A DNA stretch of 20,000 nucleotides, from the NCBI GenBank assembly GCA_039621445.1, contig CP154954.1:3779060-3799059 (forward strand), read 5' to 3'. The translations under genes were made by a program, and so were the position numbers. Within the stretch, counting starts at the first letter, position 1; every line of letters begins with the position of its first letter. Origin of the DNA: Euglena gracilis (Eukaryota). Positions 805 to 19,994 of this stretch are shown one piece after another. The notes below the pieces were generated by a model. The model did no database searches. It worked only from the letters and a program-made list of their open reading frames with translations, and had not been told where the DNA came from.

Positions 805-1558
805 GTATGATCTCGACATTTGCAGCTTCATGATCAGGGAATTCATATCTGCAAGCGGTTTTCACAACATCTGCGTGGGTAGGCGTTTGAATTTTTTTTT
901 TACGTCCAGGTTTTCACACATGTGTGAAACCGCATTTGAAACATATTTATTTCCTATTTTCAGGTTCCGGTGCAGGATATTATCTATCCAGAAATGGATT
1001 GGGGCCAGCTCCTCACTGAACTCTTGTGGTACACCTGGGAGAAGAGCCCAACGTCATCAACCAAATTAGCTCAAAATGTGAAAGTCGATAGTTATTGATG
1101 GATGAAGATGCGAACAACAAATTAACCCCCTCCAATAGAAGTGCAGGTGCGCTTAGCGAACCGCTGCTCCGGCGTCGGGGGAGGGGGGTGCCTTCGGCGG
1201 CAGGGGGTGTGCTTTTATTTGCACCCTGCGCTTGTGGTGGACCCATTTGTCTATTGGGGGTGTTTACCCCTTGTGAAGTGCTTAACCACCCACCTAATAG
1301 AAGCGCGGGGCCGCTACAAGTGCACCCCCCCATTTTGATGGGATTTCTAAAGGAAATCAACAAAATCGCGCAGGTAGGGTCCAAATAGAAGCACCCCCCC
1401 CCCCGCCACAAGCGCACCCATGCTTCTATTAGGGGGGCGGGGTTTATTATTGTCCGTGGATCGTCCACTTGCTTTCACAGAATCATTTTCTTGCTTGCTT
1501 GCTTGCTTGCTTTCTTTTAACAGACAATGGACATTGTAGAACTGCTCCCAATGCCAAC

Positions 1559-2057
1559 CAGAGGTTTTTAAATTTGGTGACCCCAGGGAGGGTGGGTGGG
1601 TGCAGCCTCCTCTGGGGGTGGGGGTCGAGCCGAATGGGTGCACCCCCCCGGAGGGGGTGTTCCTCTATTTTTGGCACAAAGCACCGAATGATTTTTGGAC
1701 CCCAAAATTGACCCCAAACGTGGGCCCCCAGGGGTTTTTTTTTTACACTGGAGGGAACTCTAACCCCCCCCCCCACCCGGGCGTCCAGCCAGCAAGCAGC
1801 TTTTTTCCAGCCAGCCAGCTCCCGACCCCTGGGGGGTCCGCTAAAATTAAGTTCCGGCTGGACCGAAATTTTTTTTAAAAAAATCAAAAAGGACCAAAAT
1901 GGAATTTTTGGGTGGTTCTGGGTCTGGGTCTTCGCCTCAGAACTTTGGCTGAAAAATGCCAACCCGGCCGAATTTGGACTTTTTTTGTCTGTTTTTGGGG
2001 CCCGGCCGGACCCAAAACCAAACCACACCTCCACCCGGGTTTTTAAAAAGACTTTTG
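1559..2057. mobile_element. Diverged hAT-like MITE
   Basis: CAGAGGTTTTTAAA...TTTAAAAAGACTTTTG. Flanks ATGCCAAC / ATGCCAAG match at 7/8. Left end resembles 8435-8470. Confidence 0.6.
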
Positions 2058-2502
2058 ATGCCAAGTCAGTTTTAATTTTTTGCCAACAGCTCAGTTTTTT
2101 TTTCTTTAGGTGAAGTTATGGCCGCCTCTTCCTACAAAAAAAAAACGGGGGAAATTTGCGAAAGTTCAATGTCGGCCAAGTCCCCTCACCCCTGTTCTGT
2201 TTCGTTTTGACGTTCTTTCCTGAGAGGCTGCCCGCTGGGTCCCACATTGTCAGATTTTTTTGTCCAAAATGGAACCCAAATAGAAGTTCGAAGAAGTTTT
2301 TTTTTTGAGACGGAAGGATTTGGTGGCGGCAGGATTTTTTGTGAAGAACGTTTGGAAAAAATTGGCAGACTGTGAAAAAGGAATTTGAATATCATGCGGC
2401 ACAAAATTCGCCACAAAAATGCACAAAAATGCACAAAAATGCACATTATTTGAACAAATGCTCAAGGATGACACCCACCGTGTGCCACCCCCGTCCCATC
2501 AG

Positions 2503-2668
2503 CTGGGGGGGGGGGCTGGGCCCGACGATGTGGTGCTGGCGGTGCGGTCTGCCCGGGCCCGCATTCTGCTGAAGGCGGAGTCCTCCGGCCTCGCGCCGCG
2601 GCTGGAGGCGTGGAACCGGCTGCTGCTGTTTGACAACCCTTGGAAGTCGACGCTGGTGTTTGGCGCGG
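2503..2668 (+). CDS. Gene 1 exon (LGGGAGPDDVVLAVRSARARILLKAESSGLAPRLEAWNRLLLFDNPWKSTLVFGA)
   Basis: High GC3 codon usage, CATCAG acceptor (alternative non-canonical start at 2524), phase-1 donor G|GTGTGG matching the next exon. Confidence 0.7.
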
Positions 2669-5600
2669 GTGTGGCTGCCTGCCGACCCCCGTCGGGCAGC
2701 TGCGGTTGACCGCTGCACAAAACAAGCGGACTGCTGCCGGCTCTGCAATTTCAGACACTCCGTGGCAGAAAACAGACACGTGCTCTGAAATCTGCAGGAT
2801 GTCTTTCCCTGTGTTGTCCGCGAAAAAAACTCATTATTTTGAAAAGAGGGGCTGAAGTTGTGGCAGTCCTCAGTCACACAGGAGGGTTGTGCCAGGTGTT
2901 GCTCGAAACCAATAGGATCACCTGCATCAAGCTGGGCGTGATTGGTTTTTTTCCAGGTTCCGTGTTGTTTTGGTTCTCCATGCACACCTGGTATCATTCT
3001 GCGTTTGCCTTCCGTCCCCTCGTGCAGTGATGGCGTTCAATGGGGTGATGGGGCATTACCGCCTGTGGAGCCAGGACCGCACTTGCGTGTGAGAAGTCAA
3101 TAAATCCATCATCGGAACAGTGTAGCGCAATTCTCAATCAGGCTTTTCTGGAAGTCCGCACCTTCAGGGGTGGGTGCTACAGGCAGTCAGGGGTGGGGTT
3201 GTGGTGCTGCAGCGCCTGTCTCTGAAAGAAGCGGGGCATTTTAAGGGAAATTCACCTGGGTCAGCCAGGACCAATACCGACCCCCTCCCCCCCAGGGTGC
3301 CTGCGTTGGGTGGGAATCCCACAGCACTCACAGCACAAGGAATCCCGGGTTGAAAAAGCCTGCAATATATTTTTTTCACAAAGGAAGTTTAAGCATTTCT
3401 GTTTTTTTTTGCAATGCTGAAACAGGATTCTCAAACATACAATTATTATATGTCCGCTGGTCAAGTAGGTCGGACCCCCCCCTGGAGGTGGTGTCCAACT
3501 GTGCTGAACCGGGATCCGGTCCGTCCTGCCCCACCATTTTTCTTAACCCCAGAGTTGGTTATAGTGAACATTGTCTGGCCACCCGTGTGGCCCTGCTGCG
3601 GTGCCGGGCTTTTTTGCCTTGTTCGTTGCCAGCTATGTGATTGGGTACCGGCAGCGCGATTTCTGGACTGAAAAGGTGTGCCGGGTCCGCCACCGATTCT
3701 CCGGGTGCACCTGGGTAGGTCACATGGATGCATCCCGAGATGCACACCCGGACCCACTCCCCCGGCCCAACCTCCTAGATGCCTAGATACCCTGGATCAC
3801 ACTCAACCCCAACCTTTCCTTAACCCCACCAAACTTATCCACAACAGCCCTAATCCAAACCCTGAAGAATATCGGAACGAAATTGAAAGGATAATCCAGC
3901 TGACTGTGGGACGGGTCCTCTGGCGCTTGGTGACTATCAATTCACTGTCCTCAGGAGTGCACCAGAAAAGCAACTTCTGGGAACGAACCGCATATTTGGT
4001 AGAAGGAGTCATGGGCAGGTTTTGATATTATTCCAAACTGTGCCCCACCAAGACTTTCCTGGCAACAAACACGCTGGTTTTTCATTTCTTCTTCTTTGTT
4101 TATTGCAAGCGTGTTCTGTTTGGCCAAAGGCAACACTGGGTCAGCTGGATTGGCCTTGGCTGTTAACGCTCTGGCAACCAACAGCACACTTAGAAAACTG
4201 AACGTTGCTTGCGAGCACACTACTGGGCAACAGCTCCAGACAGTTCGTTCCTGATAGTTCACAATTAACTTTTTTGCCAGGGACATTTGTCTTCTTGTTT
4301 GAACCTGTCTTTGTCCCACTTAGGCTGCTCTTCCTAAAAAGTCAATAAACTACCACCATTTTGCCACTTAGTTTTAAGAAAGCACCGTGGATTTTAAAAG
4401 GTTTGCAAAAATGGCAGTTCTTTGCTTGCTTAGAGGCAGCATGTTGCATTGCTTGACAACACTAATGGATGCCATATGCACTTTGTGGAATTCCAAGACT
4501 GCTTCAAAATTTCAAAAGAGGTGTTCAAAAGCAATGATAATTTTGTGTTTCAGACTTTTTTAAAAGGGGTCAAAATGATCAAATGGGGTTTCTCGCTGGA
4601 TCTCATCAACTTGGTTTTTCGAAGGAAATGCTCCAGGAACTGATGCCAGATGGGGAATGTGTTGTTTGGCAGACATGATATTTCAAACTGAATATCTTCG
4701 CATGACACACCAAACTCGTAAGCGTTGCAGCTGTGTTACAGAACCCTGCCTCCCAAACCTAGCCACACCACGCCACCTTGTCAGGTGTGCAAACCATCAC
4801 ATATGAAATCAGAACGAACCAAGAAAACCAAGCAAGAACTTGGGAGGTGTGCCATCCCCAATGATATACTGATATGCACCTGTGTATCCAAAAATGAAAA
4901 TGTTTGTGTTTTTTCCATTTGCATTAATCCATAATTCTGAAATTTCCATATGCGATTGTTCTCAACCAACTACTGTCAGATTGATTAAACCCCCATCAGC
5001 GATTTGTCCAACCTTTTAAATTTATAAGTTTTTTTTTTAAAGGGATGTTGCTTTGATCTGCCAGGGGATTGTATTTATTAGGGAACTGCAAACTAGTTCA
5101 GTGCAAGTTCATGAATGATTCACACATTTGACACACACACATTTAATTTCCCCCTATTTTTCCAGTGGTAACCTCTTTTAAGGTGTCTGCTCTATCTTTT
5201 TTTGACAGGAGATTAAGCTTTTTGGGTTGTGACGAAAATTCTGGTATTTGGTATTTTGGGCTTTTGCTTCTCTCGGGATTGGGAAACATTTATTGGGCTG
5301 CGGGTTTCACAGCCCAGGTGTGAGCCGCACTCATTTGGACACTGCGCTGTTGACCACTGCAGCACACCCATACGATGTATCCGGCATTCCCATGCGTTCC
5401 ACCACACCCCAGGGTGATGGTCAGCACCGCGTGGCTGAACTGGCGGATCATTGACCGCTTCCTGTCCCTCGCCACCTGGCAGCACCCCCGCTCCAGTGTC
5501 CTGTCCAGGCTTTTCTCTTTTTTTTTTATACAGGAAGTGCGCACAGTTTTCACAGGTGAGCGCTATGGGCATAGGGGTTTTTTTAGTCGTGGACCCCCGG

Positions 5601-8600
5601 GGGGGGTAGGGTGGGTGGGTCTGGCCAAGCCCCCCCCCCCGGGGGGTCCCCCTGGAGGGGGGTGGGATATACGTTTCGGCGCCGAAGGCGCCGAAAAAGT
5701 GCTATTTTTAGCACTTTTCGCGATTTTCGGCCATTTTTTGTTGGTCCCCCGGGACCCCGCCCCCCCGGGGGGCCCACAGGGGGGGGGTGGGTTGGGGGGA
5801 CCCCCAGGGTTCGATATAAGGAGGGCGTACATGGTTTAGGTGGGGGGGTGTCCCCCCTCCCCCCCCCCCCCCTCCTGGCCCGCAGGGTGGTCCGGACCAC
5901 CCCCCCCCCCCACCTGCAAGGGGGGTCCGGACCGACCCTCGGGGGCAAAAATTGACCCCCCCAAAAAGGGTCAATTTTTTCCTCCGGCGCTTCGCGCCGA
6001 AAATTTTTTGCATTTTTGGCACATTTTTGCCCAAAAAGTGCCCAAAATGGCACTTTTGGGTCGTTTTGGGGGTCCAAACCTTTTGCGGGTTTTGAGGGGG
6101 TCAAAAATTTTCGGCCACCCTGACCGCGCACCTGTTTAGGTGGGGGGGGGTGTCCCCCCCCCCCCCCCCCCCCCCTCCCTGGGCCGCAGGGGGACTCCCC
6201 CCCCCCCCCCCCACCTGTCCTTATATCGAACCCTGGGGACCCCCCCGGTCTTAAAGAAACCCCTGTATGGGCAGCCAGGGGGGTGGGGCACTTTAATTCT
6301 AAAGCACACCCCCGGCGCGGAATATGCCAGGGGCCCGAAAATATCCATTTTCAAAGGAAATTTGCCTGGGTCGGCAGGGACCGGGGTTCAAAACAGACTC
6401 CGGGGGGGGGGGGGCCTGCTCTTGGCAGGCACCCCATCGCAAAAGGCACACCCCCTCCCCCCCAGGTTGGTAAAAAGGAAGCCTGGTCCTGTCCCTCGTC
6501 TTCTTCACCCTGTGCTTCCTCCTTGCGCTCATCCTGCCCGGTTGGGTGATGTTGAACTTCATCCTGGCGGTGTACCTCACCCTCGTTGTCGGTCTGGCAT
6601 GCTGTGCCTCGAGGTCATCCATATGGATCGGCTTCTTCCCAAAGCCAGTCTGCAGTGATGATGGCTCCATGCTGTGTTTTTCTTCCGCAGTTTTCGCTCG
6701 CTATCCGATTATTCGGTGCTTCACTTATGCCTCCCATTTGGATGGCGTGCGGCTACGGGCAAAGCCTTTCGTGCGACCCTATGTGGGTGTGTATGTCCCC
6801 ACCTTCCACACCCACAACACGCGTGAGGGGGCACACACAAACACACATGCAAGCATGCACACAGGGACATTGCTAGTTCTTATTTGTTGTGCCGGGGAGC
6901 CATTTTTTGGTGGTTTTTTTTGGAATGATGACCCGAGGGAGGGGATGGTAGCGATTTGTAATGGGACGATCCATTTTCCATTCATTCAAATGGACAAATT
7001 TTAAACCACATTTTTACTTTAAACTGCCTGGCACTTTCTCGAATCATGGTCACTATCCTGACCCCCATCCCAGCCAAATTTTAAACCACATTTTTACTTT
7101 AAACTGCCTGGCACTTTCTCGAATCATGGTCACTATCCTGACCCCCATCCCAGCCCCCCCCCCCCCGTTTACCTGGATTCAAGCTCTCTTGTTCGCCTTT
7201 CTTGCGTATTGGGTTTCCTGACGTTCCCTTCTTCCTCCGCACCCCGTCAGGCCGACTTGTCGTGACGGTCCACTGTGCCCACGGTTTCCGAAGCTCAGAC
7301 TACATATCCACCGACCCTTACGTTGTGGTGATGGTTGGCGAACAAATGGACCGGGTTCAGGGTGGCTTCCACAAAACACACGACACACACACACACACAC
7401 ACACACCCACACGCACATTGATCCACACAGGCTTTACAAGCACAGACACACAACCTCATATAGCCCAGACACAGCCCACACAGATGACTGACAGGCTCGC
7501 TCATGGACTTTTTCTGTGCTTTCCCCCTTATTCAATAAATCTGTTTTCATTCTCATTTTGCACGTTTTCATTTTGCAATTGTTTTTATGTTGTTTTTTTT
7601 GCATTCAACTGGCGCACGATGACACTCTGCTGGTACAAAGTCCAAGATGAAGGATATGCACCCCCTGTTTGAGGAGGTGTGATGCAATAGGTACTTGGCA
7701 GCATGGCAGCATGATGGAACAGTGCTCTGTGTGTGTGGGCAAGGTTGGATGCACCGTGCCGAACGTTGTTTCAGACCATGGAGTTCATCGTGTTCAGTCC
7801 CAACACACGTGTCCAAGTATTCCTGTGGGATTGGGACCGGTCTTCATCAGACGACTTCCTTGGGGAGGGGCAGTTCCAGACCACAGGTGTGCGCAATGAA
7901 CTCCTCCAGTGATGTGGCTCATAACCCCAATATGTGATGGAGAATTGGGGGAGCTTCGCGTTCAGTTGTGGTGGTCAGGATCTGTCCTCAGAGGTCTTTT
8001 CCTCCCGCCTTACATATTCCATGCTGGAGGGACACCTTTTGCCCAAGATCTATAGCGAGCATACATGTGAAATAAGGCACTCAAGGGGCAAAGCCTAACC
8101 TTCCCAAAAACATTCACCTTCAAATAGCCGGCAAATTAGGCATGACCTCCTTGGGGAAGTGCGGAACCCAAGGTGTCCCTCAACGTCCCTTCCTCTTCCT
8201 CCCTCCTCGGTGTTCTCCGAGGGAGTGTGTGAGGAGTCAATTTTTCAGCCTAAGATTTCAAGTGCCCGTGGTCAAGGCGTGGCGTTCCAGATGCGGAAGG
8301 AGGGGACTGACCTCTTGAAAAACAGGCAAAGGGCTCTGATGTTTGTTGGGGCCACTCGTTTGGGGGCCCAATTTGGATTTTTTTTTTGCAGATTCAAGTT
8401 TTTTTCAGAATCAGCCGGTGTTTGTTCATTCCAGCAGGGACTTTTTAAGGTTGGTGACGCAGGGAGGATGGCTTAGGGTTTCAATTTCGGGTGTCAAATA
8501 TTGGGCTCCAATTTTTTCGGTATTTTTGCTCCAAAAATACAGAAATTCTTTTTCTGGCGGATACCCACTTGATCCGACGGGGGTTCCCCATCAGAGGGTG

Positions 8601-8971
8601 GGTGGGTGGGTTGGTGTCCCCCCCCAGTCTAAAAAAAAAACCCTGTTTCTGTTCAGTGCCTTTTTGTTGGGCAACCTCCACCGTCGGGGGTTGCTGAGTA
8701 TGGCAAACCGGACCCACAGGGAACGCGGGATTTTGGGACCTAAAATCTCTTTGGGAACGCGGGTCACATCCGAAAGGTGTGACCCGAATGACCAGCACGT
8801 TGTATTTCACACCCCACCCTGTCTACACCCTCCCCCTGACCAGGGGCCCCCGGCGGCACCGCCAGCCGGGGCAATGTCTGGGTGGACATCCGCCCCCGCC
8901 CGGCCTGCTTTGCCGACTACAAGCGGTTCGTGTCCGGCCGCGTGCGGGTCAGCTGGCGGCTGGACGATGTT
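2503..8971 (+). CDS. Gene 1, spliced multi-exon span (5' and 3' incomplete): C2-domain membrane protein with an MCTP/PRT_C-like transmembrane region followed by a C2 domain
   Basis: Manual splicing of 11 exons with consistent phases gives ...WNRLLLFDNPWKSTLVFGAVMAFNGVMGHYRLWVPGFFALFVASYVIG...EGVMGRVMVSTAWLNWRIIDRFLSLATWQHPRSSVLSLVFFTLCFLLALILPG...RPYVGRLVVTVHCAHGFRSSDYISTDPYVVVMVGEQMDRTKSKMKDMHPLFEETMEFIVFSPNTRVQVFLWDWDRSSSDDFLGEGQF...WVDIRP...SGRVRVSWRL. Family assignment is by motif recognition, not a database search. Confidence 0.8.
3028..3068 (+). CDS. Gene 1 exon ((V)MAFNGVMGHYRLW)
   Basis: Pyrimidine-rich GCAG acceptor in phase 1. The 3' end abuts the non-canonical intron start AGCCAGG. 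Confidence 0.7.
3069..3600 (+). other. Non-canonical (euglenid-type) intron, AG...CG ends
   Basis: CAG at +4..+6 and CTG at -8..-6. CAGGACCGCAC pairs with GTGTGGCCCTG (10/11 including G-U). Removal fuses the flanking exons in frame. Confidence 0.75.
3139..3362. mobile_element. Diverged family A-like MITE inside intron 3069-3600
   Basis: CAGGCTTTTC...AAAAAGCCTG termini. Internal CATTTTAAGGGAAATTCACCTGGGTC resembles family A. Only CAAT is duplicated at the flanks. Confidence 0.6.
3601..3675 (+). CDS. Gene 1 exon (VPGFFALFVASYVIGYRQRDFWTEK), TM segment
   Basis: Follows the non-canonical 3' end CCCTGCTGCG and ends at donor AAG|GTGTGC. Hydrophobic and in frame with the previous exon. Confidence 0.7.
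3900..4018 (+). CDS. Gene 1 exon (LTVGRVLWRL...NFWERTAYLVEGVMG(R)); 5' boundary uncertain
   Basis: CCAG acceptor in phase 0 and AG|GT donor in phase 2, matching the exon at 5413. VMGRV...DRFLSLATWQHPRSS resembles the plant MCTP motif VAGRI...ERLQSLLSWRDPRAT as recalled. An alternative exon 3955-3998 in another frame is also phase-compatible. Confidence 0.5.
5413..5502 (+). CDS. Gene 1 exon (VMVSTAWLNWRIIDRFLSLATWQHPRSSV), PRT_C-like W-x-x-P motif
   Basis: CCCCAG acceptor and high GC3. Ends in phase 2 at the MITE-derived intron. Confidence 0.85.
5572..6265. mobile_element. hAT-like MITE nested in the family A copy, 8-bp TSD TATGGGCA
   Basis: TSD at 5564-5571 and 6266-6273. Termini TAGGGGTTTTTTTAG / CTTAAAGAAACCCCTG. 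Confidence 0.85.
5805..6235. mobile_element. hAT-like MITE family B, innermost nested copy, 8-bp TSD GGGACCCC
   Basis: Perfect 18-bp TIR CAGGGTTCGATATAAGGA / TCCTTATATCGAACCCTG. TSD at 5797-5804 and 6236-6243. Confidence 0.9.
6491..6591 (+). CDS. Gene 1 exon (SLVFFTLCFLLALILPGWVMLNFILAVYLTLVV), hydrophobic hairpin
   Basis: In frame with 5413-5502 after removal of 5503-6490. Phase-1 donor G|GTCTGG. Confidence 0.8.
6691..6786 (+). CDS. Gene 1 exon (FARYPIIRCFTYASHLDGVRLRAKPFVRPYV)
   Basis: TTTTCTTCCGCAG acceptor and G|GTGTGT donor, both phase 1. Confidence 0.72.
6995..7154. repeat. Perfect 80-bp tandem duplication within an intron
   Basis: 6995-7074 is identical to 7075-7154. Confidence 0.9.
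7251..7354 (+). CDS. Gene 1 exon, C2 domain N-terminal part (GRLVVTVHCAHGFRSSDYISTDPYVVVMVGEQMDR)
   Basis: Classic C2 pattern G-x-L-x-V-x-V-x-x-A...D...DPYV. GTCAG acceptor in phase 1. Confidence 0.9.
7355..7634 (+). other. Non-canonical/intermediate intron, GT...GT ends
   Basis: Starts GTTCAGGGTG and ends CACTCTGCTGGT, giving a 7-bp stem CAGGGTG/CACTCTG. Removal restores C2 sequence MDR-TKSK. Confidence 0.7.
7635..7676 (+). CDS. Gene 1 exon, C2 domain (TKSKMKDMHPLFEE)
   Basis: Matches the C2 pattern T-x6-[LM]-x-P-x-[FW]-x-E. Donor GAG|GTGTGA. Confidence 0.8.
7775..7886 (+). CDS. Gene 1 exon, C2 domain (TMEFIVFSPNTRVQVFLWDWDRSSSDDFLGEGQFQTT)
   Basis: C2 signature WDxD...DDFLG. TTTCAG acceptor and CAG|GTGTGC phase-1 donor. 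Confidence 0.9.
8844..8971 (+). CDS. Gene 1 exon, C2 C-terminal strands (APGGTASRGNVWVDIRPRPACFADYKRFVSGRVRVSWRLDDV)
   Basis: GACCAG acceptor in phase 1 and very high GC3. Followed by a CCC-CAGGCTTTTTT MITE-type intron start, so the 3' end is approximate. Confidence 0.8.
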
Positions 8972-9328
8972 CCCCAGGCTTTTTTTAAATTTATTTTGTT
9001 ATGGTAGTCCCCCCCCCCACGGACTTTGGGAAGCGGAGGGGGGGGGGGGCACTTTTTCCTGGGCCCAAACCCACCGCCAATACCCCCCACCCACAAATCC
9101 CCCCAGGGGTCCATGAAACCACCCACCCACCCAAAACCCCTCCAAAATTGGCCCAAAACCTTTGAAGTTTTTTTTCCTGGTCTAGCCTTCAGCCAGGCAA
9201 AAGACTGATCCGTGGTGCTCCTCAACCCCCCGGGGGGGGTCCAGCAGCCTAAACCCACCCACCCATTCTTGACCTCCCTGGGGGTGGGTCACAGGTCACA
9301 CAGTTGTTAAGTGAATCTCTGGCTCCTG

Positions 9329-9577
9329 CCCCTCATCGAATGGGCACGCAAGGGGAAGACATTACCGACACCCGGGGGGGGGGAGGGGGCTTTGGGGTGG
9401 GCAGTGCTTTGGTCCCCCAGCAGAAAGCACCAGGGTTTGGCAATGGCCGTTTTCCCGGGAGATTTGCCCGAGTCCAAAGAACCCCGCCGTTCAGTGCCCA
9501 CTAACACCAGCAGGCACTCCGCAAAGGGCGGCAAAAAGAAGCCTGACCTCACACCGCCCTCCGTTGCTCCACTGTGA
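9329..9577 (+). CDS. Possible terminal exon of gene 1 (PLIEWARKG...GGKKKPDLTPPSVAPL*)
   Basis: Open frame ending in TGA that could join in phase 0 to 8971. Splice boundary not convincingly resolved. Confidence 0.25.
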   Translation, partial: PLIEWARKGKTLPTPGGGEGALGWAVLWSPSRKHQGLAMAVFPGDLPESKEPRRSVPTNTSRHSAKGGKKKPDLTPPSVAPL

Positions 9578-9594
9578 CCGATGGAGGGGGGCCC

Positions 9595-10178
9595 CAGGGT
9601 TCGATATAAGGAGGGCATATGGGGTTTAGGTAGGGGGTGTCCCCCCCCCCTGGACTGCAGGGGGGAGAAAATTGCACCGTGCAATTTTTGCAATTTTGTG
9701 CAATTAATTGCACATGGCCTGGGATATTTTGTTTTGGAAAATATCATTTTTTGATGCAATTGAGAACTTGCCGTGTTTTTTTTTTTGCTGGGAAATTGAT
9801 GTACGTAGTGAAATTTCCGTTCAAAGGCTGTTTATTGTTGGTTTACTCAGTGTGCAAACCTTATCTTGAGTCCCCTGCCCAGGTGTCTTTGATACTTTCT
9901 CAACCAGGACTGGAGGGGGTCTGGTCCACCCCCCGGGGTCCGTACCGCCCCCGGGGGGATACCTGGAACCCGCAAAAGGTAAATTTTTTTCCGGCGCTTT
10001 GCACCGATTTTTTTTGCATTTTTGACAAATTCGTTTTGGGGGTTAAATCTTTCGGCCCGGCGCTTCGCACTGGGCTGACAATCCGTCACCTGGGCCACGC
10101 AATTGTTTAGGTGGGGGGGTGTCCCCCCCTTGACCAGGGGGTCCGGACCCCCCCCACCTGCCCTTATATCGAAGCCTG
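9595..10178. mobile_element. hAT-like MITE family B, second copy
   Basis: CAGGGTTCGATATAAGG...CCTTATATCGAAGCCTG. Flanks GGGGGCCC / GGGAGCCC match at 7/8. Confidence 0.85.
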
Positions 10179-12411
10179 GGGAGCCCCCAGCCAATTTCAT
10201 CCCCACCCCAAGTGCTGTTGACCAGCCACCTTCGGCGTGCTGGCCATCCACCTTTTTAAAAAGTGGGTTTTTTCTTGATGGTTTATCCCATCACCCACTT
10301 GCGCGATGCAAATCCTGTCCCGCAAGTTGTTGCACCATGACACGATGCAAAATTGTCTCGACCTGTGTGTTCTGATGTTGCCGTTTCAGTTTGCGCGAAA
10401 GCCTGTGCCATCATTAAAATAATATTAATAAAGTATATATTAAATTTTCAATAAATATAATGTTTTTTTCTGTAATACATTTTTATCATGAACAATCATT
10501 TGATTGTTTGCATCCATCTAATACAGGAGCAAACAGTCAAAAAAGTTTCCGACAGTGCACATTATCCCAATTGTGTCCCCCCCCCCTGGAGGGGATGAAA
10601 ATGCTTTGCTCCCCTCCCTGGGTTGGTAGGCATAAACCCGCCCCAAATAAAATAGTATCCCCCCAAATAATATTCCTCCCAAACAACATTCCTCAACTTC
10701 AGCCGCCCAAATAATATCCCCCCCCCCATTTTGCACAGAGCGCCACAGAAACAAAGGGAGCTGGGACCGTATTTTTTGCAAGTTTTACTTGAATTCCACC
10801 ATGTTCAGATTGAAAACAGACAGGAAAATACCAAAAGGTGCAACTTGAGACAAAAAAATCACCCCATTATGGGTTTTGATGGTAGAAGAAGCCTGGTGAG
10901 AGCAAAATTTTTTCCTCTTCTTGACCCCTTCCGTATTCGAAAACCAAACCCGGCCTCAGGCAAGGAGGTGAAGTGGCTCATGTAGTGACTCGTGGACCCC
11001 AACTTGATAGCAACCCCTGCCAATGCGGGCCGAGGGGGCATTGACTTCGACATGGTGACCATTTGGGCAAAAACTAACTTTTTTTTGCCGTTGGTCTCAC
11101 TGCCTCCTCAGTCTCCTCAGAGCCCTTAACACAATACAAGAACCACAATACCATTTAATCCCACTCAGTGCTTTGTTTTCCCAATTATTTCTGACCATTT
11201 TAAAGGTTGCGTCAGCACACCATCCAGTGTTAGGCAACTTCATTGTATGGCCAACTGTGCATCCCGTACCGGAACATGGCGCCCTCTGTCAACTTCATTT
11301 TTGCACTTTGTTTTTTCATTGTTTGAGATTGCTTTCATTGTTCCTGTCGTTTGGTTTTCCTGTACATTGCACATCTTTCAGTTGACTTTATGGTCGTCAC
11401 TTTTGATGCTGTGTCCTCCACAGGTCTATCTTTTTCTCAATGAACTCATAATGTGGTGACAAGTGACAAATCAATCATTATCTCTTTCTCACCCTGGTGT
11501 GTGAATTGGCCTGATCAGTCCCATCAGCATCACCCCCTGACGAGACCTCCTTTCCCCCCTCCCAGTTTTTCCAATTTTCCAATTTTTCCAATTTTTGTGA
11601 CAAGTTGAATTAAATTGATTGAGGGGGACCCATCTTCAGTTGGCAAAGGGAAGTTCTTTTTCCAAAATATGATCCGTGCTGCGAGCGAACCGGTGTTCGC
11701 AAGATTATGTTTAATTGACTACGTTGCTGCCTGCAATTTTTCCCCCTCCCTTTGTTCATTCATTCACATGTGATGATGAAAACCACAATCCTCACATGTG
11801 ATTATGACCACACGTGTCTTCTGTCTTCAATTTTATGCAGGTTAGAATGCCATTTCAGTGGATTATTCCTTTCTTTTGGATGCAAATTTCTTCTGCGCTC
11901 TGTATCTGCACTGCATCTCTGTGCCATTCCTCAGGAGCACTGAATGCCATCGTGCCTGCCATGCTGTCATGACCACACCGTGGCTTAGTGTTGACTGACC
12001 CAACCACAGGGGGGGGGGTATTTTTTTGTAAGTGCTGAAAATTTGACCCAACTTTTTTTCCCAGAAAGCGTCCAATAGCTGATTATCAGTAAAGATTATC
12101 TGAAAATTGCTAATTCTAACAGAAAAGTAATCGTTAGGACATCGGGGAGGAAATCATTAGGAAGTTGGGGATTTTGCACAGTTTCATTGCGAAAACACAG
12201 TCACATTTGATTTCGGGACCTCTTGTCATATTCAGGGGGGTCCCCGCCGTTCACTCACTGGGGTGGGGGGGGGGCGTAGTTTATGACTTCCATATCAGCA
12301 CACAAGGATATATGGCATGTGTACCTTTGGATACCTCCCCAGTATGCAAATGTACAGTTGCCATATATCCATGCATGTACACCCGTCGAAGGCTTATTTG
12401 GAGAGGGCCAG

Positions 12412-13700: not shown

Positions 13701-14689
<989 letters not shown>

Positions 14690-14935: not shown

Positions 14936-16303
14936 CAGGGATTCCCTCTGATTCGTGGCACGAATAATCACGAATAATCGCGAATTACCGCGAATTTTGG
15001 ATTTTTCGAAAATCACGAATAGTCACGAATAACACGAATAACCACGAATGAGATTTTTTTCCTGGGAATTATTTTTCTTTACAAATGTAGTCATTCAGCA
15101 TTCGGAACTGTGTTTTATTTGTTCTTTAGAAAATGTCTTCTTCGGATTCTGACGATGAGGTTGGGGACCGCTTCTCTGTTGCGCAACAACACTGGCCGCG
15201 AGCGACTTTGCTTTCTGCTTTTGTGATGGATCATGTTTCCAGCCAAAAAAGGGGTTTGTTTGGACAATGGAACGCTCACACAATGATGACACAGAGGTAC
15301 AATGTTGTCAACTATGTGTACCCCCCCCCCCCCCTTGTCCAACGACCGGGCTTGTCTGACGACCACCCTCTCCCCCAGTCAGAGGTGATCTTTTTTGCAT
15401 ACATACCATGTTGGTTCGGCCAAAATTGCTAAAAGTTGGCCAAAAACAGTCAAAAATGACCAAAAATGGCCAAAAAAATGGCCAAAGGTGGCCCAAAATG
15501 GCCAAAAGCCACAAAAAAAAATTGGCAAAAAAGGGCAAAAATGGCCAAAAGTTACCAAAAATTGCCCAAAGAGACCAAAAATGGGCCAAAGGGGGCCATT
15601 GTATGGCCAACAGCTGCCAAAGGTGGCCAAAAGCGACCAATCAAGGCGAAAAGTGGTTAAAATGCCTAAAAGTACCCAAAAATGCCCCAAAAATGGCCAA
15701 AAGTGCCAACCATAGTCAAGAAATGGCAAGAATGGCAAAAAAAAAACAGGCCAAAATGGCCATATACCCCCATCTTCGGTCAATTTTCCTCCGACTTGGG
15801 GTCCACCCCCCCCCCTTGAGCAACACCCTGCTGCTAAGGTGGTCCATAAGGGACGGGAATTTTTTTTTTCGTTAAGGACCGCCCCCCGGCCTGAGGGCCA
15901 AACAAGGCCGGCGAAGGGCGACCAGGGATTTGAACGGAGTCCAAAATTCAAAAGTCGAAACACACACTTTTTGACGTTTTGGGTGGATGGACGACAATTC
16001 AAGGGTGTCAGAAATCACTTTTTTCCCCAAAGTCGACCCGTTTTTTTTTTTGCCAAAATATCGCCACTTTTTGGTCATTTTTCCCTATGGATTTTTCATT
16101 GGATGTGTCGGGACGGGATTTCTTTTTTTGCTTAGGACCGCCCTGCTTCCTGCCGGCATCCCAGCAGTCCATCATTTAGCTGAAAACCGGGCGGATTTTT
16201 GGAACCACGAATAATCACGAATAATCACGAATAATCACGAATAATCACGAATAATCACGAATCAGAAATGGCGGTCCCCACCACGAATGGGAGGGAAACC
16301 CTG
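14936..16303. mobile_element. 1.37-kb non-autonomous TIR element with subterminal (CACGAATAAT)n arrays
   Basis: About 23-bp imperfect TIR CAGGGATTCCCTCTGATTCGTGG / CCACGAATGGGAGGGAAACCCTG. Flanking duplication CTCTTAG at 14929-14935 and 16304-16310. Confidence 0.8.
15415..15762. repeat. Degenerate ~10-bp satellite (TGGCCAAAAA-like)
   Basis: Repeated GGCCAAAA variants inside the 14936-16303 element. Confidence 0.7.
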
Positions 16304-16457: not shown

Positions 16458-16750
16458 CAGGCTTCTTTTTAAGGAAAGTCGCTTAGTCTGGGGGGTGCTG
16501 TGGGAAAGCCGGGGGGACGGTCCTTTCGACCCCCCCCCCCCCAGGGGGTCGGGTTTTGTGGTCAGTGGTGCTATAGCACCCCCCCACCCGGCGCCTTCGG
16601 AGCCGGGGCCCAAAAATAGCCATTTTCAAGGGGAATTTGCCTTGGACGGCAGGCCCCAGGGTCCGAAACCGATCCCCCTGGGGGGGGGTGCCTGCTGTGG
16701 GCAGGCACCCGTAGCACAAGGCGCTCTCCGGGGTGGTAAAAAGAAACCTG
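16458..16750. mobile_element. hAT-like MITE family A copy
   Basis: CAGGCTTCTTTTTA...TAAAAAGAAACCTG. Flanks TTTGGCAC / CTTGGCAC match at 7/8. Internal similarity to about 6330-6485. Confidence 0.8.
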
Positions 16751-18085: not shown

Positions 18086-18240
18086 GTTCATGCGTTCATT
18101 CATTCATGCATGCATTCATTCATTCTTCCATCCATCCATCCATCCATCCATCCATCCATCCATCCATCCATCCATCCATCCATCCATCCATCCATCCATC
18201 CATCCATCCATCCATTCAGACAGGCAGGCAGGCAGGCAGG

Positions 18241-18277
<37 letters not shown>

Positions 18278-18349
18278 GGACGGACAGACAGATAAAGAAT
18301 GGATTGATGAATGAATGAATGAATGAATGAATGGATGGATGGATGATGA

Positions 18350-19482: not shown

Positions 19483-19994
19483 NNNNNNNNNNNNNNNNNN
19501 NNNNNNNNNNNNNNNNNNNNNNNNNNNNNNNNNNNNNNNNNNNNNNNNNNNNNNNNNNNNNNNNNNNNNNNNNNNNNNNNNNNNNNNNNNNNNNNNNNNN
19601 NNNNNNNNNNNNNNNNNNNNNNNNNNNNNNNNNNNNNNNNNNNNNNNNNNNNNNNNNNNNNNNNNNNNNNNNNNNNNNNNNNNNNNNNNNNNNNNNNNNN
19701 NNNNNNNNNNNNNNNNNNNNNNNNNNNNNNNNNNNNNNNNNNNNNNNNNNNNNNNNNNNNNNNNNNNNNNNNNNNNNNNNNNNNNNNNNNNNNNNNNNNN
19801 NNNNNNNNNNNNNNNNNNNNNNNNNNNNNNNNNNNNNNNNNNNNNNNNNNNNNNNNNNNNNNNNNNNNNNNNNNNNNNNNNNNNNNNNNNNNNNNNNNNN
19901 NNNNNNNNNNNNNNNNNNNNNNNNNNNNNNNNNNNNNNNNNNNNNNNNNNNNNNNNNNNNNNNNNNNNNNNNNNNNNNNNNNNNNNNNNNNNNN
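19483..19994. other. Assembly gap (N run)
   Basis: Run of N characters. Confidence 1.

Follow-up and report, generated by a model that had tools for sequence, protein, structure and literature searches.

A mobile-element copy is a nonconventional intron, excised with one copy of its 8-bp flanking duplication, in a Euglena gracilis gene

In nuclear DNA of Euglena gracilis (contig CP154954.1 of assembly GCA_039621445.1, positions 3,779,060 to 3,799,059; this whole 20,000-nt stretch is called the window here, and positions are counted from its first letter), a gene for a C2-domain/membrane protein is interrupted in its coding sequence by a copy of an element that is bounded by terminal inverted repeats (TIRs) and flanked by a perfect 8-bp direct repeat. 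This element copy is exactly a nonconventional intron: it is absent from the RNA together with one copy of the repeat, and the reading frame is thereby restored. Insertion of a transposon, followed by scarless splicing with spacers of 3 and 5 nt, is likely to be the full explanation of this structure (we put its probability at roughly 0.8). All features described below lie on the + strand.

The element, a MITE-like family-1 copy (MITE: miniature inverted-repeat transposable element), which we call copy A, occupies 980 nt at 5506-6485. Its termini are CAGGCTT (5506-5512) and AAGCCTG (6479-6485), each continued by a T-rich or A-rich stem, and it stands between two copies of GTCCTGTC, at 5498-5505 and 6486-6493, which form the target-site duplication (TSD). 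At a length of 8 the flanks agree at 8 of 8 positions, as against 1-4 matches at eight other lengths (L=4 to L=12), and the chance of an 8/8 match at one fixed pair of sites is 1 in 65,536. The repeat can be read as 9 nt, by chance, because the first base of the element and base 6494 are both C. End to end, copy A forms a duplex of -18.7 to -21.1 kcal/mol (z -2.55, 200 shuffles) in which CAGGCTT pairs with AAGCCTG. The open reading frames inside it look like low-complexity read-through. Nested within copy A, at 5805-6235, is an element of a second family, with termini CAGGGTTCGATATAAGG (inverted at 14/14 positions) and its own 8/8 flanking repeat, GGGACCCC, at 5797-5804 and 6236-6243. Copy A is therefore composite rather than a simple MITE.

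RNA and DNA were compared over window positions 900-10400, using X15 and X16 (contig sets that behave as RNA, with zero depth in long introns), X21 (raw RNA sequencing reads), and X1 (contigs from a DNA run). A single joint, 5497->6486, which is among the 15 of 240 joints listed (rare alternative joints may lie outside these), crosses the insertion site. It is present in one X15 contig (depth 142.6), one X16 contig (depth 100), and 4+11 raw X21 reads with 14 start places, and it skips 988 nt, which is the element (980 nt) plus one 8-nt copy of the repeat. The same joint is found in 0 X1 contigs, as are all 12 RNA joints, contig evidence being better for presence than for absence. X1 contigs do span the intron-exon borders of the gene, including the 3' junction of copy A (record 5, 6349-6823); thus, the insertion is present in DNA, and its removal occurs at the RNA level. 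This last contig (depth 16.7) differs from the window at seven places. Five of these are exon variants (6512, 6552, 6569, 6711, and 6725), all of which recur in X16 contigs and part of which recur in X21 reads, and X15 carries the window letter at 6512. Both haplotypes are therefore expressed, both contain the insertion, and both show the same joint. Within the X1 data, summed contig depth is very high over the nested family-2 element (bins 5655-6288). As a separate observation, a 12-nt direct repeat, TCCTGTCCCTCG, lies at 5460-5471 and 6487-6498, overlapping the downstream copy of the duplication; a skip between its copies would remove 1027 nt, keeping the frame with a loss of 13 codons, and no such joint is among the 15 of 240 listed.

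The coding context was defined with P0001, the protein from an E. gracilis transcript (eukprot EG_transcript_7506), located by tblastn against the window. P0001 matches a chain of short exons at 961-7354 nearly residue for residue. The exon upstream of copy A (5413-5502; tblastn with P0001, RNA joints 4844->5411, with a cut at +2, and 5497->6486) ends in WQHPRSSVL, and the downstream exon (6491-6591, also placed by tblastn with P0001 and RNA joints) opens with a purine, G, and encodes the hydrophobic sequence SLVFFTLCF. Across the insertion site, P0001 reads WQHPRSSVLSLVFFTLCF without interruption, so that the frame WQHPRSSVL / SLVFFTLCF is continuous, and the paralogous proteins P0002 and P0003 have neither gained nor lost a residue there. 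The gene product comprises a hydrophobic hairpin and a C-terminal C2 domain; the Pfam C2 match is weak on single exons, and PF00168 is precomputed for the paralogues.

Because nine letters fit either side of the joint, the RNA permits ten registers. Conventional splicing was considered and rejected, as GT-AG, GC-AG, and AT-AC ends occur in 0 of the 10 registers, and there is no AG dinucleotide in 6484-6494. The register can be placed with the published code for nonconventional introns. In knock-in experiments in E. gracilis, Nomura et al. (2025; PMC12501133) report exactly 3 nt before CAG (more generally CDG), 5 nt (6 tolerated) after CTG (CH'G), and a purine opening the next exon. Placed by this code, the intron is the 988 nt at 5503-6490. 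It reads GTC-CAG...CTG-GTCCT followed by exonic G, a match to N3-CDG...CH'G-N5-6 with R next, and its two spacers, N3 (5503-5505) and N5 (6486-6490), are the last 3 nt of the upstream TSD copy and the first 5 nt of the downstream one. A purine as the first base of the next exon occurs only in registers 0 and 5 of the ten.

The original prediction, made from the letters of the window, had anticipated much of this. The CAGGCTT...AAGCCTG element between perfect 8-bp copies can be read directly in the sequence, the frame that it proposed for the interrupted coding region after removal of the element plus 8 nt is that of P0001, with no insertion or deletion in P0002 or P0003, and its claim of a junction lacking AG is borne out. 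RNA mapping, which it had named as a check, gave the predicted skip of 988 nt in X15, X16, and X21, and the spacing that it had proposed, 3 nt ahead of CAG and 5 nt past CTG, is that of the code defined by knock-ins, as described in the text of PMC12501133. Its description of the intron as exactly a MITE needs amendment: the limits of the intron are those of a TIR- and TSD-bounded element plus one repeat copy, as stated, but that element is a composite carrying a nested family-2 copy.

Copy A is not alone in the window. The terminal 14-mer of family 1 has 8 matches there at no more than 3 mismatches (shuffle mean 2.23; 0 of 200 shuffles reach 8), and these matches make correctly oriented pairs at 8975/9545 and 16458/16750. 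The second pair bounds copy C (16458-16750), which is 293 nt long, has a TIR matching at 13/14 positions, is flanked by TTTGGCAC and CTTGGCAC (7/8), and is not known to be genic; its 3' part (~180-192 nt) is 72% identical to copy A (E 7e-28). The first pair, copy B (8975-9545), is family-1-like and coincides with the last coding intron, a nonconventional one at 8972-9550, with CCC as N3, ACCTC as N5, and the purine A next. Its RNA joint, 8971->9551, is unambiguous (0 ambiguous letters) in X15, X16, and X21, so copy B, too, is exactly an intron. A further family-2 copy lies in the 3' untranslated region (UTR) at 9595-10178, beyond the stop codon at 9575-9577, between GGGGGCCC and GGGAGCCC (7/8). 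At this copy a pyrimidine follows N5, and RNA contigs cover 9551-9580 and 10193-10381.

The window was also scanned blind, outside tandem arrays, for pairs of CAG...CTG whose TIR matches at 11/14 positions or more. Among the 31 pairs found, the three with a TIR of at least 13/14 show flank matches of 8, 7, and 7 of 8, versus 0-5 at the other 28, and no pair with at least 7 flank matches arose in 100 block shuffles. A short ungapped inverted end keeps copy A itself out of this set of 31. In all, four elements have 7-8 of 8 flank bases in common (copy A, copy C, the nested family-2 element, and the family-2 copy in the 3' UTR), and for copies A and C the flank repeat appears only at length 8. 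Several copies with common TIRs, and a duplication of fixed length that differs in sequence between copies, mark family 1 as a mobile element family. Copy C measures 293 nt, and copy A 980 nt through nesting. A search of Rfam over the whole window gave 0 families. A metagenome scan with a 17-nt family-2 end gave 23 loci, each of which matches at one seed only and shows no likeness beyond it; these hits are attributable to chance, and no Euglena contigs are among them.

A mechanism that would unite these observations begins with a non-autonomous DNA transposon, with inverted CAG/CTG ends, inserting into a coding exon and making an 8-bp duplication. The nonconventional splicing system would then recognize the paired CAG/CTG ends, cutting 3 nt upstream of CAG and, downstream, 5 nt beyond CTG, ahead of a purine. 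If the duplicated bases are numbered t1 to t8, the upstream cut would fall between t5 and t6 of the first copy and the downstream cut between t5 and t6 of the second, leaving t1 to t8 once. Because 3 + 5 equals the length of the duplication, the RNA would lose the element plus one duplicate copy, and the frame would return without a scar. The arithmetic of the published code would guarantee scarless removal of any such insertion, as long as t6, which is G at this site, is a purine. The present data supply the anatomy, the family, the flank repeats, and the 988-nt skip, which is seen in RNA and not in DNA, and the literature supplies the cutting rule; the insertion would have occurred by transposition, and the rule may exist because of such elements. 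A broader proposal is that the 3-nt and 5-nt spacers are set by the 8-bp duplication of CAG...CTG-ended (hAT-like) transposons, with precise excision at the RNA level making exonic insertions neutral at once. This we hold tentatively, at a little under even odds.

Several observations weigh against this account or against its generality. RNA mapping gives 12 introns in the stretch, of which seven are GT-AG and five are not (1003-2523, 3069-3600, 5503-6490, 7355-7634, and 8972-9550). All five agree with the splice code, and only one of them keeps the repeat, the flank matches being 2, 1, 8, 1, and 3 of 8 in that order, which for the other four is the level of chance. The general rule is thus not demonstrated by the window, which contains one intact case of the scarless geometry. 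The rule in its general form, as originally predicted, finds support in the 7-8 of 8 matches at family-1 copy C and at the family-2 copies, and fails to find it in four of the five nonconventional introns. Copy B has lost its repeat (3/8), and it shares 13-14 nt with the family at each end and has little internal likeness to A or C; it may be of great age, a chimera of two elements, or the product of another mode of origin. If the introns without repeats are old, the losses would be accounted for by neutral decay in those halves of the duplication that are intronic, and the scant internal likeness of copy B would fit with this. Copies A and C are just 72% alike, which indicates that the family is not young, even though copy A retains an intact repeat. 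Without gaps, the TIR of copy A extends over few bases: 7 match perfectly, and offset T/A-rich runs follow. Between the two family-2 copies the flanks are similar, GGGNNCCC, which may reflect a target preference or mean that the shared bases are part of the element. Finally, because the copy A repeat is perfect, any pair of cuts with offsets summing to 8 gives identical RNA, so that RNA of the window haplotype alone cannot show the 3/5 register. The second haplotype bears on this last point. In DNA it has C>A at 6488 (one X1 contig), the third base of the downstream repeat and intronic N5 under the code, and GTCCTGTCC nevertheless fits its RNA, represented by an X16 contig with the same exon variants (6512, 6552, and 6569). 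With one DNA contig and the count of ambiguous letters as its basis, this is suggestive of a cut at or beyond the third repeat base, in agreement with 5502/6491.

Other origins for the structure can be considered. One is repair of a double-strand break by filler DNA, in which the 8-nt repeat would have arisen as a staggered break was filled in. New introns with direct repeats are a recognized mark of this process, the text of Milanowski et al. (2016; PMC4770533) interprets the 8-nt repeat at a gapC intron in this way, and copy B lacks a repeat. We nonetheless regard break repair as improbable because the inserted DNA is a repeated family, with the same inverted ends elsewhere and 8-nt flank repeats of its own, and a second family behaves alike; nor does break repair predict CAG...CTG inverted ends that exactly abut the repeat. 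The spliced form could instead come from DNA, either through precise somatic excision or because an empty allele or paralogue is transcribed. There are indeed two haplotypes or close paralogues, and a few residues of P0001 are not those of the window. But the absence of all 12 RNA joints from the X1 contigs (which, as noted, show presence better than absence), the X1 contig of the second haplotype that crosses the 3' junction of copy A, and the identical joint in the RNA of both haplotypes make this very improbable. It is less probable still that the repeat is fortuitous or driven by coding constraint, and that the intron is simply an old nonconventional one of the ordinary kind, with no tie to mobile elements. 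A repeat is lacking at four of the five nonconventional introns, and the 12-nt repeat noted above shows that the exon is internally repetitive; yet an 8/8 match at a fixed register is expected by chance only once in 65,536, and in this register three other elements bounded by TIRs match at 7/8, 8/8, and 7/8, against 0-5 at the 28 weak candidates. We give this reading almost no weight.

Accepting insertion of a mobile element, it could still be asked whether an adapted spliceosome, rather than separate machinery reading the TIR stem, removes it. The window does not distinguish the two, and a diplonemid study prefers, in its text, an adaptable spliceosome (PMC12621601). We think a spliceosomal route unlikely here, since canonical dinucleotides occur in no register, published work as reviewed in PMC11282704 describes circular excised introns and independence from U1 pairing, and the strict 3-nt and 5-nt spacers from the CAG/CTG pair (PMC12501133, as far as its text goes) would suit a ruler on a helix.

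The superfamily of the transposon is a different matter, and for family 1 we place the odds of hAT at about even, based on the length of the duplication and the CAG start. Among well-known superfamilies, an 8-bp duplication is most typical of hAT, whose terminal motif is YARNG and whose target pattern is nTnnnnAn. The duplication length agrees. The ends of family 2, CAGGG, fit the motif at 5/5 positions, and those of family 1, CAGGC, at 4/5, the fifth base departing. Of the two target positions, copy C has both, copy A one, and the nested copy none. A MITE-born nonconventional intron from a superfamily other than hAT that also makes duplications of ~8 bp (such as P or another DDE family, going by their general properties) would accommodate the departure at the fifth base, the full target pattern at copy C only, and hAT support that consists of duplication length and a CAG start; against it stand the typicality of 8 bp for hAT and the fit of family 2. 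It remains clearly short of an even chance, though well above the other alternatives considered here. The nearest parallel among hAT elements is Ds, which reportedly acts as an intron in maize (work attributed to Giroux et al. 1994). Ds is spliced at cryptic spliceosomal sites, and in most cases the message is changed as a result. hAT MITEs and Ds resemble copy A in their 8-bp duplication, their CAG(G) ends, their non-autonomy, and their capacity to be spliced from transcripts; in contrast, the message here is restored exactly, and the hAT label applies by ends and duplication only.

Parts of this picture are already in print. A MITE-like origin of euglenid nonconventional introns was proposed in the text of Milanowski et al. 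(2013; PMC3935182). The text of Nomura et al. calls the origin unclear, suggests MITE-like elements, and sets aside "slidable" introns for motif finding. The introns that it describes are like ours in lacking GT-AG, in having CAG at +4..+6 and CTG at -8..-6, paired ends, and an exonic purine, in being absent from mRNA, and in being slidable with a direct repeat. They differ in that our intron can be recognized as one of several copies of a TIR-bounded element, and its 8-bp duplication is intact. A 2024 review (PMC11282704) depicts the introns of euglenids as having "TSD-like" repeats as well as TIRs, the latter at +4..+6 / -8..-6, and states that nonconventional introns leave as full-length circular RNA, after the conventional ones. 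In E. agilis ACOI 323, gapC intron 4 is described by Milanowski et al. (2016; PMC4770533) as strain-specific and recently gained, with 8-nt direct repeats that they read as break repair. It shares with copy A its nonconventional nature and the 8-nt direct repeats at the junctions, the recent gain being that of gapC; the text of that study, its supplement aside, reports neither a repeated or TIR-bounded family nor a link to the 3/5 spacers. Thus, a MITE origin, repeats resembling a TSD, and a young intron with an 8-nt repeat have all been published before, and the novelty of the locus is smaller than first supposed. We found no published statement that the spacers sum to the duplication length, and no element family that had been named, although supplements and figures may bear on this. 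The text of PMC12501133 contains neither "hAT" nor "duplication," and its sole "8 bp" is the -8 position; the text of PMC11282704 has neither "hAT" nor "8 bp." In the literature on Euglena transposon annotation, nothing relevant was found.

Outside euglenids, the closest comparison is with the introners of Micromonas, Aureococcus, dinoflagellates, and others, as outlined in the text of PMC11282704, in which a non-autonomous TIR/TSD insertion makes an intron and the duplication helps to restore the exon. Copies A and B share the introner features of being exactly introns and, for copy A, of a restored frame, and have no spliceosomal splice sites. Introners depend on the spliceosome and use GT/GC-AG sites, or variants of these, that derive partly from a 3-5-nt duplication, whereas here the sites are set by how far they lie from the CAG/CTG stem, and the duplication measures 8 bp. 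Copy A works like an introner, but via the nonconventional code.

The remaining introns and repeats of the window are of interest in their own right. In the nonconventional intron at 1003-2523 (flank match 2/8, no repeat; RNA-mapped), the main joint is 1002->2524, and a minor joint, 1003->2530, with 5 other letters between its sides, is carried by a single X15 contig (depth 88.2) and by a single read of X21. Within this intron, 1217-1533 has a summed X1 contig depth of 56,832, versus ~20-60 in unique bins, and is another high-copy repeat nested in an intron. The RNA-mapped nonconventional intron at 3069-3600 has a flank match of 1/8 and no repeat, as does that at 7355-7634. Into the latter the EG_transcript_7506 model reads, terminating inside (...GEQMDRVQ.GFHKTH...), whereas the intron is removed in the RNA data (GEQMDR/TKSKMKDM...); the public transcript is therefore a partly unspliced form. 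At the conventional GT-AG intron 3676-4784, an 8-nt direct repeat, AGGTGTGC, lies at the junctions (RNA joint, 8 ambiguous letters). It is in part the usual AG/GTGTGC donor consensus, which is present in other conventional introns here, and no inverted ends were seen at this intron; its origin by insertion with an 8-bp duplication at a proto-splice site is possible. The conventional intron 6787-7250 contains a perfect tandem duplication with an 80-nt unit (6995-7155). Farther downstream are an (AC)n array of ~1 kb (13703-14689), a degenerate 10-nt repeat, GGCCAAAAAT (15418-15742), a perfect 10-nt repeat of 5.7 copies (16206-16262), CATC/CAGA tetranucleotide arrays (18097-18292), and an assembly gap of 512 N (19483-19994).

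How the nonconventional introns of euglenids arose has been an open question since the 1990s, and proposals of a MITE ancestry, as far as the texts cited here go, rest on inverted ends and "TSD-like" repeats rather than on identified families. This locus provides a multi-copy family, a fixed 8-bp duplication, and two RNA-verified intron copies, and it offers an arithmetic reason for the measured 3-nt and 5-nt spacers. The hypothesis of origin thereby becomes countable across the genome. If the spacers are indeed set by the duplication, young nonconventional introns genome-wide would show 8/8 identity in this register, decaying with age, and the relationship would explain why ~70% of Euglena introns are nonconventional. 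It would also show how a genome tolerates massive insertion of transposons into exons. In any case, the locus is concrete support for the nonconventional introns of Euglena having begun as mobile elements.

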